A stretch of 54,966 nucleotides of DNA from an uncultured archaeon (GCA_964342815.1 CAYFHS010000027.1:1-54966), one strand, 5' to 3'. Shown: positions 16,368 through 30,290, counted from the stretch's first letter. Notes: generated from the sequence alone by a model not told the origin. Translations and numbers: made by a program.

Positions 16368-16565
16368 TATTCAGCGGAATCGTTCCCTCTGGGCCACGAT
16401 TCCGCGAACATTGTCAGGCTACGAATCTCGGCAATATTCACCCCACTGACAATATTCCGCAATCCACCCATCGGGCTAGGTGTGTCGAGACACATCATAG
16501 CTAAGAATTAGCCCCGGAGGGAGACTAATTCAGATAAACATCATTACTGGAAAAAGCGGATGGAC
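16368..16565 (-). ncRNA. Candidate structured ncRNA, copy 2 of an unassigned family (homologous to 29870-30290)
   Basis: Stems on the minus strand: UCCAUCC/GGGUGGA, GAAUUAG/CUAAUUC with a c-UCCG-g loop, GCUA/UAGC, AUAUUGUCAG/CUGACAAUGU and GCGGAAUCGU/ACGAUUCCGC, ending in GCUGAAUA. The boundaries are estimates. Confidence 0.7.
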
Positions 16566-16638
16566 GAGGGTTTGGACAAGGAATATACCCTATTAAATTT
16601 TTTTTTAAAATGAGAACGAAATACGGTTGTGAAATAGT

Positions 16639-17979
16639 ATGGAGATTTTCGGTTTCGATCTGATATTTGGGCGCGCCCAAAAGGGGATAAAACCTCCTCA
16701 TTGGAAGTTTACCAAAGAGAAGAAAACAGAGAAATTACCTTTACCGGATGAGGTTATCATTCCATTATCTCAACATATTGGGGCCCCATGCAAGCCTGTG
16801 GTGAAGATGCGGGATGAGGTAAAGGTCGGTCAGGTCATCGGTGAGGCCGGTGGGTTTGTCTCAGCACCAATCCATTCCACTGTTTCTGGCAAGGTCAAAA
16901 AAATGGGTCAGATGGTTCATCTCATAACGGGTCGCGTGATAGACACTGTTATCATTGAGTCAGACGGCAAGGATGAGTGGATCGAGCCATATGAGCCTCT
17001 TGACCTGGATACCGCCAGCAATGATGATCTGCTTGGAAGGGTAAACGAAGCTGGAATCGTCGGCCTTGGAGGGGCAACGTTTCCTACCCGCGTGAAGCTC
17101 AGTCCGCCGCCAGGAAAGGTGATCAATACAATCATTATAAACGGGTGCGAATGCGAGCCCTACATCACTTCCGATCATCGATTGATGCTGGAGGAGGGTG
17201 AAAAGATATTGGGTGGGATCAAGGTACTGATGAAGGTATTGTCCTGCGAAAAGGTGTTAATTGCTATCGAGGATAACAAGCCTGATGCCATCGCACACAT
17301 GAAAAAACTGGTATCGAAAGAAGGGCTCCCATCAACGGTTACGGTGGAAAGTCTTCCATCCAAGTACCCCATGGGAGCTGAAAAAACACTTGCGAAGATA
17401 CTTATGGGAAAGGAGGTTCCTTTAGGCGCACTTCCCTTCGAGATAGGGGCTTTAATTCAAAACGTAAGCACCATGAAAGCAATATATGATGCTGTTTTCA
17501 AAGGTATTCCACTTGTGGAAAGGACCATGACCGTCACAGGAGAGGTGAATGACCCGAAGAACCTTCTAGTCAGGTTCGGTACTCCCATTCGCACCCTGAT
17601 CGATCACTGCGGGGGGCTTACAAAAGATGCGGGGAAAGTTATCTTCGGAGGCGCAATGATGGGTCTTTCCCAGTATGATCTCGATGCTCCGGTGATAAAA
17701 GGAACCAATTGTATACTGGTGAAGAAAGCCGAACACTGGACCGAAAGCGATTGTATTGGCTGCAGCAGGTGTATTAACGCCTGTCCCATGGATCTTCTTC
17801 CAACAATGTATGTAAAACTGGTGAAGGCGAAGAAGTTCGTCGAGTGCGGAGATAATTACATCGAAAACTGCGTGGAGTGCGGTTCATGTACATACTCATG
17901 CCCTTCGAAGATACCTCTCGTACAATATATAAAAGTGGGCAAAGGAGAACTTATGAAGATCAAGAGGAGGGAGGGATAA
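16639..17979 (+). CDS. rnfC: Rnf electron transport complex subunit C
   Basis: IPLSQHIGAP, GIVGLGGATFPT, NGCECEPYITSDHRLM, and two CxxCxxCxxxCP clusters. Confidence 0.96.
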   Translation: MEIFGFDLIFGRAQKGIKPPHWKFTKEKKTEKLPLPDEVIIPLSQHIGAPCKPVVKMRDEVKVGQVIGEAGGFVSAPIHSTVSGKVKKMGQMVHLITGRVIDTVIIESDGKDEWIEPYEPLDLDTASNDDLLGRVNEAGIVGLGGATFPTRVKLSPPPGKVINTIIINGCECEPYITSDHRLMLEEGEKILGGIKVLMKVLSCEKVLIAIEDNKPDAIAHMKKLVSKEGLPSTVTVESLPSKYPMGAEKTLAKILMGKEVPLGALPFEIGALIQNVSTMKAIYDAVFKGIPLVERTMTVTGEVNDPKNLLVRFGTPIRTLIDHCGGLTKDAGKVIFGGAMMGLSQYDLDAPVIKGTNCILVKKAEHWTESDCIGCSRCINACPMDLLPTMYVKLVKAKKFVECGDNYIENCVECGSCTYSCPSKIPLVQYIKVGKGELMKIKRREG

Positions 17980-17980
17980 A

Positions 17981-18985
17981 ATGACCGAGAACGTCAATAA
18001 TGACCAAGATGAGAAAAACCGGTTTTTGCTGGCCACCACATCACCTCATATCAGGTGTAAGGTATCCGTAAGCAGGATCATGTATGCAGTAATATTCGCT
18101 CTGATGCTTCCAACCATTGGCGGCATTTACTATTTTGGTCTAAACGCCCTCTGGGTGATACTTACCACTGTGATCACTGCGGTTCTCACCGAGTATATAA
18201 TAAAGAGATTAAGAAAGATCGAGTTTGTCATGGACGGCAGCGCCGTGGTCACCGGTCTATTGCTTGGCTTGATACTACCGCCATTGCTGCCGAAATACCT
18301 GTGGATCGCCGCCATAGGTTCCGTGGTTGCCATAGGTATCGCAAAGGAAGCTTTCGGCGGATTGGGTCACAATATGTTCAATCCGGCTCTGGTGGGCCGC
18401 GCTTTTCTATCAGCAAGTTTTTCCGGAATCATGACGAGCTTTGTGCTTCCTACCAAATGGAGCGGGGCCGATGCTATTACCGGAGCGACACCTCTAAAAG
18501 AGTCATTCAATTACATAGATAAATCGGAGTATATGGATCTATTGCTGGGAAATGTTGGTGGTTCCATTGGTGAAACGTCCGCTCTGCTGATACTCATCGG
18601 CGGTCTCATTCTCATATTATTAAGCGTGATCAATTGGAGAATACCTCTCACCTATATCGGCACTGTTTTCGTCCTTACGTTGGTTTTTGGCGGGGATCCG
18701 TATCGACACGTACTTGCAGGCGGGCTGCTACTTGGTGCATTCTTCATGGCCACTGATTATGTCACTGCTCCTCTCACAGATAACGGCAAGATAATATTTG
18801 CTGTAGGAGCCGGAATTCTAACCGTCTGTATCCGGAAATTCGGTGGAATGCCGGAAGGTGTGTGCTTTTCCATACTGCTTATGAACGCAGTCACACCACT
18901 TATTGACCGATACACGGTACCGAAACCCTTTGGTTTCAAGAAACCCGAGAAAAAAGATCCGGAAGATAAGGAGGTGGAAAAATGA
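17981..18985 (+). CDS. rnfD: Rnf subunit D
   Basis: SPHIR, FGGLGHNMFNPALVGRAF, the FMN-attachment DAITGATPL, and FFMATDYVT. Confidence 0.96.
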   Translation: MTENVNNDQDEKNRFLLATTSPHIRCKVSVSRIMYAVIFALMLPTIGGIYYFGLNALWVILTTVITAVLTEYIIKRLRKIEFVMDGSAVVTGLLLGLILPPLLPKYLWIAAIGSVVAIGIAKEAFGGLGHNMFNPALVGRAFLSASFSGIMTSFVLPTKWSGADAITGATPLKESFNYIDKSEYMDLLLGNVGGSIGETSALLILIGGLILILLSVINWRIPLTYIGTVFVLTLVFGGDPYRHVLAGGLLLGAFFMATDYVTAPLTDNGKIIFAVGAGILTVCIRKFGGMPEGVCFSILLMNAVTPLIDRYTVPKPFGFKKPEKKDPEDKEVEK

Positions 18986-28708: not shown

Positions 28709-29758
28709 TTATACCGTATTATTAGTGTTTGTTGGTGAGTTCGTCGATTGCGATTGACGGTCGCTTTCGAATTCACCTCTGAGATCGAACAAAACCTCTT
28801 TCAATTCATTCACTCCGATCCCCTTGAAGCTGGATACGGGAAGCCATTTCTCAGTTCTTTTCGACGCGAAAACTTCAGTCCTTTCCTTTTCTACATCCGT
28901 TTTCGATATAACGTATATTATTGGAACCTCATTGAAATAATTTTCCACGGCATCGAGAAGTTTTTCCTGTCGGTTCAACGGATAACCGCAGTACTCCGAA
29001 GCATCCAAGACGAAAATGATAGCATGAGCGAGGTTCTTAAGCGCGGAGAATGCACGTTTCTCGAAATCATTGTGTTCTTCCGGGGGCCTCTCCAGTATAC
29101 CTGGTGTGTCAATTATCTGAATTCGTTCGCTTGATCGGCGTACCTTCCGTACGAGATGACCAACAATCACGTCGTGCGTGGTGAAAGGATAATGAGCTAT
29201 CTCGGGTGCTGCCGAGGAGAGTTCATTAACAAGAGCTGATTTACCCACATTCGGAAACCCTGCTACCACGACCGTGAACACATCGCTGTCTATATCGGGC
29301 ATTTTCCGAAGGACTTCTCTTACCTCGGATAGGAGAACAAGAGCATCGTCGACATTACCTACAAGAGACGATACCCTCCCGTACACCGACCGGCTTATAC
29401 TTTTGATCTCTTCCGTGTTTCTGGATCGTTTGATCCTTGTTAGAGCTTTTCTGCAAATGCTTCTGATACCTTTTCGTATCCCATCCACCCTGCCAAGGGA
29501 AATTCTTATCTTGTCTCTTGAGAACTGAATGTCCATCATTTCGGCTGTAAAGGGATGAAGATTATCGAAGGACGGAAAAGCTCTTATAATTTTTAGGATC
29601 TTAGAATCCAGTAGGTCTGATATGGATTTTATCTTGCCGGTTTCAGTCTTTTTTATCCTGAAATATGGCTTCTTGTCCTCCACTGAAATTTTCGACACCC
29701 TATGGAAAGCAAAATCCAACAATTCCTGTGCAAGAAGTATTGTAGGTATGTTCTTCAT
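28709..29758 (-). CDS. NOG1-family GTP-binding protein
   Basis: FPSFDNLHPF, AGFPNVGKS, IAHYPFTT, IDTPGILERP and SKTD motifs. Confidence 0.93.
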   Translation of the reverse strand: MKNIPTILLAQELLDFAFHRVSKISVEDKKPYFRIKKTETGKIKSISDLLDSKILKIIRAFPSFDNLHPFTAEMMDIQFSRDKIRISLGRVDGIRKGIRSICRKALTRIKRSRNTEEIKSISRSVYGRVSSLVGNVDDALVLLSEVREVLRKMPDIDSDVFTVVVAGFPNVGKSALVNELSSAAPEIAHYPFTTHDVIVGHLVRKVRRSSERIQIIDTPGILERPPEEHNDFEKRAFSALKNLAHAIIFVLDASEYCGYPLNRQEKLLDAVENYFNEVPIIYVISKTDVEKERTEVFASKRTEKWLPVSSFKGIGVNELKEVLFDLRGEFESDRQSQSTNSPTNTNNTV

Positions 29759-29850
29759 CTCCCGGTTAATAAATCATCCGTCATTTATAGTTTCGGTGGG
29801 TAAGAGTACAAATGATAAATCTTACCTCCGCTCATCGTAGAATTATTCAC

Positions 29851-29858
29851 TTTATATA
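29851..29858 (+). promoter_or_regulatory. TATA box candidate for the structured RNA / K+ channel transcript
   Basis: TTTATATA lies about 15-25 nt upstream of the first helix. Confidence 0.5.
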
Positions 29859-29869
29859 GACTCAGATCA

Positions 29870-30290
29870 GGAATATGAAAACCATACTTTGGTATGGCAT
29901 CGGGGTGAATCCAAAAAGCATAAATACCTGCGTAGGTTTCATATTGTCAAATGGGTGAACCTCGACAGAATGAATTGTGAATTGGTAAATTCACTTCACC
30001 CTCGGAAACCTTCGGGTTCCTACAGGTGTCGAAGTAAGGCCATTTGATAATGTTTGCAGAATCGGGGCATGTAGGGAACTTTTTGTTTCCGAAGGCGCAG
30101 CAGAGCCGTAGGGTCTGCTTAATCTGACCGGACACTTGCGAGAAGGGATCGAAACATCCGTAGGCACACATGCCGAGGATGCAGTTGAATCTCTGATTCA
30201 ACGTAGCGTAAGCGGGCATCTCGGATGTTTCAAGATGAAACGTTCGTCCGGAGGAACCGATTCTGCTGAATACTGTTCAAGACCAGTTTT
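29870..30290 (+). ncRNA. Candidate large structured ncRNA (about 400 nt), copy 1 of an unassigned family
   Basis: More than 10 helices, including the perfect long-range GCAGAAUCGG/CCGAUUCUGC (30056-30065/30257-30266), a 14-bp AUAUUGUCAAAUGG/CCAUUUGAUAAUGU stem with G-U pairs, a c-UUCG-g loop at 30010-30015 and a GUAA tetraloop. Its core is shared with 16368-16455. Confidence 0.8.

Follow-up and report, generated by a model that had tools for sequence, protein, structure and literature searches.

R1: a probable lineage-specific family of small, non-autonomous mobile elements with two hairpins in marine Thermoplasmatota

The window considered here is a stretch of 54,966 nucleotides from an uncultured archaeon (GCA_964342815.1 CAYFHS010000027.1:1-54966), its source genome (G000 below) being a marine Thermoplasmatota metagenome-assembled genome (MAG) of 4.35 Mb in 116 contigs. 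Two related structured elements had been predicted within it from the DNA alone, and both are present at the positions and on the strands proposed, copy 1 at 29941-30271 (+) and copy 2 at 16455-16369 (-); R1 is the name given here to the repeat family that contains them. Copy 1 lies between a gene for a NOG1-type GTPase and one for a TrkA_N/Ion_trans_2 potassium channel, the latter co-oriented with it and starting 40 nt downstream. Copy 2 lies, as described originally, in the spacer between apbE and rnfC, antisense to both. The parts of the two elements are as follows (hyphens in the sequences set off the AT junctions and the apical triloop).

16369-16455, minus strand: copy 2, a simple element, 87 nt long with both terminal ATs counted, running from AT-ATTGTCAG to GCTGA-AT.
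16410-16453, minus strand: hairpin A of copy 2, a UUGUCAG/CUGACAA outer stem around a GAAU/AUUC inner stem.
16369-16409, minus strand: hairpin B of copy 2 with its clamp, comprising GUUC, then GCGGAAUCGU and ACGAUUCCGC on the two sides of an apical hairpin with a triloop, CCC-AGA-GGG, then a bulged U and GAAU.
29941-30271, plus strand: copy 1, a composite of 331 nt that has the scaffold of copy 2 and additional modules in both hairpin loops.
29943-29967, plus strand: 5' arm of hairpin A of copy 1, ATTGTCAAATGG...CCTCGACA.
29968-30026, plus strand: module within the hairpin A loop of copy 1, made up of a GTGAATTGGTAAATTCAC hairpin and a CCCTCGG...CGGG hairpin.
30027-30055, plus strand: 3' arm of hairpin A of copy 1 and, after it, the clamp half GUUU.
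30056-30065, plus strand: 5' arm of helix B of copy 1, GCAGAAUCGG.
30066-30256, plus strand: multi-hairpin cassette of 191 nt in the helix B loop of copy 1.
30257-30271, plus strand: 3' arm of helix B of copy 1, CCGAUUCUGC, and the tail UGAAU, ending in the junction AT.

Common to both copies are a 5' ATATTGUCA, a hairpin A 3' arm ending in UGAYAAUGUUY, the hairpin GCRGAAUCG...CGAUUCYGC and the UGAAU tail. The sequence comparison on which the original prediction was built is sound in its particulars: copy 1 has GCAGAAUCGG/CCGAUUCUGC as helix B where copy 2 has GCGGAAUCGU/ACGAUUCCGC, a difference of two double compensatory changes (A-U to G-C and G-C to U-A), helix A of copy 1 has a G-U pair at the position of a G-C pair in copy 2, and the helix B loop, 12 nt long in copy 2, extends to 191 nt in copy 1. 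The folds of both elements beat shuffled sequence (z = -3.6 to -7.1), on both strands and for RNA and DNA alike. A search of Rfam returned no relevant match for either element region at the gathering score or even at E<=10.

What had been described as a family of two copies proved to be far larger. The first searches, in which both copies were compared with the whole assembly by short-word BLAST, gave dozens of partial matches, and simple pattern searches in G000 gave about 20 loci under strict and about 36 under looser definitions; thirteen simple copies, aligned using MAFFT, match from about ATATTGTCA as far as GCTGAAT, and their flanks are unrelated on either side. A covariance model of R1, against which copy 2 scores 92.7 bits, returns 46 matches in G000 (E<=0.01), so that the family has at least 46 copies there, and a census based on the central-junction motif finds 51. 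The search of genome and relatives that had been proposed at the outset therefore did yield further homologs, and many of them: 67 matches in G001, which belongs to the same genus, 72 in G003, 70 in G005, and from 1 to 14 in each of seven further genomes of the class. In G002, a genome of the same family that is 91% complete, there were none. In total, 11 of the 41 genomes in this model search (40 relatives were compared) are R1-positive; all genomes are MAGs, with completeness of 62-99%. Across the phylum R1 was present in 7 of the 151 genomes sampled, and all seven are in the same class as G000. Truncated and decayed fragments of R1 also exist. Of three pattern matches in viral_contigs none fits the R1 model, matches in metagenome_contigs are ordinary R1 copies of the same lineage, and a 17-mer scan of genome_contigs was set aside as too loose, its matches being chiefly chance ones in bacteria. 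R1 is probably a lineage-specific family of small non-autonomous mobile elements. At one locus in G005 (L027, G005:C575, 1501-1846) a full copy is followed by tandem units consisting of hairpin B only, at a spacing of about 70 nt, rather like the BIME arrays of bacteria.

The basic R1 unit is about 95 nt long and consists of a long hairpin A, in which pairing is preserved across the family but sequence is variable, beside a hairpin B conserved in sequence (GCRGAAUCG...CGAUUCYGC) that carries a 4-bp clamp, GUUC/GAAU, at its base and a GNA triloop on top; hairpin B and its clamp form the best-conserved section of the family. The clamp emerged when RNAalifold extended helix B by pairing the apparently single-stranded GUUC with the downstream GAAU, from which it follows that the R1 unit is simply two adjacent hairpins. 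In an alignment of 52 copies from eleven genomes, fitted to the R1 model, paired positions are actually paired in 95.9% of cells and 19 of the 23 pairs show double changes, while none of the shuffles or slid registers came near the pairing of the real alignment; the MAFFT alignment of 13 copies, which is independent of the model, shows 7 compensatory pairs. The clamp itself covaries between subfamilies (GUUC/GAAU, GCUC/GAGU and GUGC/..CAU). It has changed in a coordinated way in a subfamily among the G001 copies (L163, L164, L166 and L171-L174), which has 3' GCTTCAT for GCTGAAT and, on the 5' side of hairpin B, ATGTGC for ATGTTC. The covarying core that had been claimed from two copies is thus real, but the RNA function that had been read into it does not follow, since selection on a mobile hairpin explains the covariation equally well. 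Nor could the proposed likeness of the UGAA/GUA internal loop to a loop E motif be upheld, because in other copies the same region is fully paired by ordinary Watson-Crick pairs.

Two properties of the fold bear on the kind of molecule in which it matters. Cells with G-U or U-G pairs number 92 (46 if the invariant clamp G-U is left out), as against 16 with A-C or C-A, and this excess implies that selection on the fold acts on one strand, in a single-stranded molecule. In addition, all but one of the 41 simple copies (40) have a triloop at the top of hairpin B, which is GAA, GGA or GTA in 30 of them and usually closed by C-G. Loops of the d(GNA) type closed by C-G are known as exceptionally stable DNA mini-hairpins (PMC3201870, PMC13037366), and the triloops may therefore be taken as a modest argument for single-stranded DNA (ssDNA) over RNA.

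Evidence for mobility comes from comparing related genomes at orthologous sites, as had also been proposed originally; both window copies turn out to be absent from G001. The apbE-rnfC spacer of G001 is collinear on both sides with copy 2 exactly missing: G001 reads ...TATAAAT-ATATTCCACAATCC..., and G000 has an 85-nt insert between two copies of ATATTC. At the site of copy 1, G001 reads ...GGTAGGTTTC-AT-ACATAATG... without interruption, and G000 reads ...CGTAGGTTTC-AT-(ATTGTCA...GCTGA-AT)-ACTGTTC..., from which it follows that all 331 nt of copy 1, nested modules included, are missing in G001. The comparison was also made in the reverse direction. From G001, 21 copies were fetched with their flanks, of which 8 were collinear with G000; six of these sites are empty in G000, one is shared and one is unclear. 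From G003, 20 copies were taken, of which 6 had syntenic flanks in G000, and not one of these six sites is occupied. For the low-copy genomes of the neighbouring family, loci match in the elements alone and the flanks differ.

Where the junctions are clean, which is so in five cases (copy 1, copy 2, L159, L172 and L174), the empty site has one AT and the filled site has an AT on each side. At L162, L169 and L173 the AT junction is only approximate, L162 and L173 showing 3-4 other bases at the empty site. In 44 copies the only conservation outside AT-ATTGTCA...GCTGA-AT is a purine at position -2 and A/T-rich bases downstream. R1 has no terminal inverted repeats, since ATATT/AATAT, 5 nt with the AT counted, is all that its two ends have in common; hairpin B stops 5 nt short of the 3' end. 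A junction of 2 nt is compatible both with target duplication and with insertion without duplication. Four public DNA runs were also consulted over 15500-31500, where their contigs are short and their depth low, and 'joints' in them from 30064 to 30248/30251 were considered as a possible polymorphism of the locus and rejected: their sides are only 21-25 nt long and derive from other R1 copies.

Copy 1 turns out to be a nest of repeats. Expanded copies of R1 retain the closing stems of hairpin A and helix B and carry multi-hairpin cassettes in the loops. Other copies and truncated fragments (C14:25077, C24:9259, C79:2410 and C4:121755) contain the hairpin A module of copy 1 as well, and the 3' two-thirds of the helix B insert of copy 1 (window positions of about 30120-30240, by BLAST match) recurs at C49:5065-5185 and C22:21133-21233 without any R1 scaffold, and is a separate repeat family. 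The 'variable expansion segments' of the original prediction are thus not expansion segments of one RNA; they are separate repeat modules, also found scaffold-free, that have lodged in exposed loops.

As to genomic context, most R1 copies are intergenic, the few cases that appear to lie inside an open reading frame (ORF) being products of crude ORF calling. Relative to the R1 strand, the upstream gene has the same orientation in 18 cases and the opposite one in 29, and the downstream gene the same in 26 and the opposite in 19; neither split is clearly uneven, and all four orientation classes are occupied. No correlation was found between R1 orientation and GC skew, AT skew or gene-strand bias. 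The genes downstream of R1 copies are mutually unrelated and lie in either orientation, and no transposase-like gene recurs among the neighbours of 47 copies. Of these 47 copies, 13 adjoin very large PKD/Laminin_G/CARDB surface-protein genes, which form two paralogous groups, and much of the intergenic space beside such giant genes in these marine archaea is occupied by repeats of this kind. Clusters of these genes (PKD/Laminin_G_3/CARDB) with R1 lie at C39:4685-12975, C8:119125-126793, C2:73296-78324 and C23:16241-27503.

With its multi-copy dispersal, its precise presence or absence at matching sites, its AT junction, its strand-specific pairing and its nesting, R1 is in our judgement probably a non-autonomous, hairpin-dependent mobile element of the kind represented by REP (repetitive extragenic palindromic) sequences, PATEs (palindrome-associated transposable elements) and MITEs (miniature inverted-repeat transposable elements). 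Its occurrence some 50 times in G000 and its position at AT sites still empty in a sister species are the reason for regarding it as a small mobile element rather than as a dedicated RNA gene. Among the explanations offered originally was a mobile element, non-autonomous and dependent on its structure as RNA or ssDNA, and it is this one that the precise AT-junction empty sites, the patchy occurrence among relatives and the modules nested in loops bear out. One may picture its life cycle as follows. An R1 unit would insert into intergenic DNA at an AT dinucleotide, so that AT would then flank both ends, and the loops of resident copies would in turn take up further hairpin modules, giving composites such as copy 1. 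Movement would be through a folded single strand, most likely ssDNA, with recognition and cutting at hairpin B and the clamp by an enzyme supplied in trans, in a manner that may be akin to that of REP/RAYT systems, of PATEs derived from IS200/IS605 elements, or of rolling-circle elements of the IS91/Helitron type.

Each of these systems resembles R1 in some respects and differs in others. The REP, BIME and REPIN-RAYT repeats of bacteria (PMC2817692, PMC3116915, PMC3733652) are likewise high-copy, extragenic, gene-less hairpin repeats; they too have stems kept by compensatory change with G-T pairs tolerated, and they too persist in a lineage without an autonomous copy resembling an insertion sequence (IS) and form mosaic or nested arrays, with which the tandem units in G005 may be compared. 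On the other hand, the R1 scaffold has neither a GTAG nor a CGTC tag, such as REP palindromes of 20-40 nt carry at one end, hairpin B being preceded instead by AAUGUUC (GTAG is seen only within nested modules of expanded R1 copies), R1 is a fixed two-hairpin unit with a defined AT junction and not an inverted dimer as in REPINs, no RAYT gene is flanked by R1 copies, and Y1 transposase genes do not co-occur with R1. PATEs are non-autonomous IS200/IS605 derivatives of haloarchaea, gene-less and without terminal inverted repeats, with subterminal hairpins, presumed movement as ssDNA and a target word of 4-5 nt situated 5' of the left end. R1 is similarly archaeal, gene-less, devoid of terminal inverted repeats and equipped with subterminal hairpins, and its 3' end pairs with a short stretch on the 5' side of the hairpin foot, much as guide and cleavage site pair in IS608. 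In contrast to PATEs, the two hairpins of R1 are dissimilar, its target is merely AT with a weak purine preference at -2, and there is no TnpB; moreover, both IS200-like elements found in the relatives have end hairpins different from those of R1.

With IS91 and Helitrons, R1 shares the lack of inverted repeats and of any longer target duplication, an insertion consistent with joining between A and T, a variable 5' part, and a 3' end, CTGA(A), that is preceded at a few bases' distance by a conserved GC-rich hairpin; Y2 transposase genes, moreover, occur in three R1-positive relatives. On the other hand, the ends of the IS91-like copy in G001 are unrelated to R1, and G000 has no Y2 gene. Finally, the TA-flanked bacterial MITEs (Correia/NEMIS, RUP and ERIC) are, like R1, about 100 nt long, intergenic, flanked by a 2-bp repeat, able to fold into hairpins and inserted into one another, but they have terminal inverted repeats of 20-30 bp and a TA duplication produced by DDE transposases, whereas the ends of R1 share only ATATT/AATAT, its dinucleotide is AT and not TA, and the assembly holds no multi-copy transposase gene. 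We therefore place R1 as a new family within the known class of small structured repeats (REP/BIME, PATE, MITE), with the AT junction, the want of inverted repeats and of a GTAG tag, the two unlike hairpins and the lack of a cognate Y1 gene as its new details. No REP/RAYT-type system for archaeal gene-less hairpin repeats was found here or in the literature searched.

Several points weigh against R1 being such a mobile element. No cognate transposase was found for it. None of the multi-copy genes of the G000 assembly is a transposase, and searches of G000 for Y1 transposases (PF01797; the IS200/RAYT type) gave no match, with MAG incompleteness as a caveat, as did a zinc-ribbon domain search for TnpB; insertion sequences are often lost from MAGs. 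Within 1.5 kb of the Y1 genes that G001 and G003 carry there is no copy of R1, and the end hairpins of these Y1 elements are unrelated to it; across the 41 genomes the presence of Y1 does not track that of R1, and the flanks of the Y2 element of G001 contain no R1-like sequence. No transposition intermediate or population polymorphism has been seen, and the G-U excess suits RNA as well as ssDNA. There is also the sole shared orthologous copy (L161; G000 C2:73296-73393 and G001 C65:12153-12250), which is identical at 95 of 98 positions amid adjoining intergenic DNA that is far more diverged than the copy itself; selection or gene conversion would account for this better than would a neutral relic, although replacement is also possible and a single case cannot discriminate.

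Other candidate mobilising enzymes gave mixed results. Helitron_like_N had no match, but nor did it have any in the control genomes, so that this search is uninformative. Four genomes, of which three are R1-positive, have IS91-like Y2 genes, with none in G000 or G003, and because the genomes are related this co-occurrence is weak evidence; the gene in G001 (L197, G001:C22, 3789-4772) has an internal TAA and lies between housekeeping genes. Serine recombinases (Resolvase) were rejected as mobilisers, being present in R1-positive and R1-negative genomes alike, including the R1-free G002. A motif census of G000 found no 5'/3' pair of R1 ends enclosing a gene, and an inverted pair of copies in G013 encloses only what appears, on reading the ORFs with no family search run, to be a broken remnant of a HicAB-like toxin-antitoxin system. 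G000 does have an IS110-like gene (C110:137-610), situated on a 1.6-kb contig.

A rather speculative extension of the mobile-element reading, which we would on the whole doubt, is that R1 is the visible half of an archaeal REPIN-RAYT-like system, i.e. a long-lived, vertically inherited population of ssDNA hairpins copied by a single-copy host enzyme of some family not recognised as a transposase (neither Y1 nor TnpB), whose signal for recognition and cleavage would be hairpin B with its covarying 4-bp clamp and whose joining site would be A/T, and that R1 may also be recruited as a protein-binding module.

Among the alternatives the one that survives best supplements mobility rather than replacing it. 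Bacterial REP and BIME sequences have been proposed to act at the RNA level as protein-binding, processing, stabilising or terminating modules, and it is conceivable, if somewhat unlikely, that hairpin B does the same when co-transcribed with its neighbours. The strand-specific G-U excess (92 against 16, including the invariant clamp G-U) would fit such a role, and GT pairing in stems has indeed been used as an argument for the transcription of REP sequences (PMC3733652); the conservation of the hairpin B sequence over family-level divergence and the 97% identity of the shared orthologous copy amid diverged intergenic DNA point the same way. Against this, the copies show no orientation bias with respect to their neighbours (same and opposite orientation 18/29 upstream and 26/19 downstream), which means that half of them would be transcribed as the weaker antisense fold, and GNA triloops are a signature of DNA stability rather than of RNA.

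That the copies are independent genes for trans-acting small RNAs or ribozymes, which was the reading originally preferred, we consider very improbable. The strong covarying fold is what such genes would show, and with no match in Rfam they would be new; but against this, R1 is dispersed in about 50 copies per genome, and these turn over almost completely from one congeneric species to another, hardly any site being shared. The upstream flanks are not conserved, so that no shared external promoter exists, gene orientation is unbiased, truncated and decayed fragments occur, and the variable 'expansions' are other repeats. Nor is a conserved unpaired core left to serve as a catalytic site, since AUGUUC and UGAAU pair with each other. 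As for a cis-regulatory leader or riboswitch, scarcely any likelihood is left to it: copy 1 does lie co-oriented and directly upstream (40 nt) of the TrkA_N/Ion_trans_2 K+ channel gene, but the orthologue of that gene in G001 is entirely without the element, which already contradicts this explanation, copy 2 is antisense to both its neighbours, and the genes downstream of the various copies are unrelated and lie in either orientation.

The strong covariation between two copies resembled that of a new RNA gene, yet what it marks is a family of mobile hairpins, and such families can mislead RNA-discovery pipelines applied to archaeal MAGs. R1 also offers a usable starting point for asking how gene-less hairpin repeats spread in archaea.

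Some further observations concern other repeats and genes. An IS200-like unit of about 770 bp, containing a Y1 gene only, is found in G001 (L191, G001:C158, 1343-2108) and in G003 (L190, G003:C1, 1254-2019) and is 82% identical across these two genera; its end hairpins are of the form AACGCCAG...CTGG. The flanks of this unit map to two G000 contigs, in one case 565 nt from the end of C21, and given this proximity to a contig end a copy of the IS200-like unit may be missing from the G000 assembly. G000 contains a second gene-less hairpin repeat, unrelated to R1, at C40:5027-5104 and C36:43040-43117, with paired ...GCAGCTTGCTGCG... hairpins; the GCAGCTTGCTGCG repeat matches the end of an IS200-like Y1 element in G001 (L189, G001:C65) and looks like a classical PATE. 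Within the window, an ORF of 108 aa at 26775-27101 (-) is one of three paralogues, the others being at C24:8013-8393, the only one scanned, which has no Pfam match, and at C6:146867-147238. The sole Rfam match in the window is an 84-nt tRNA at 46521-46604 (-).

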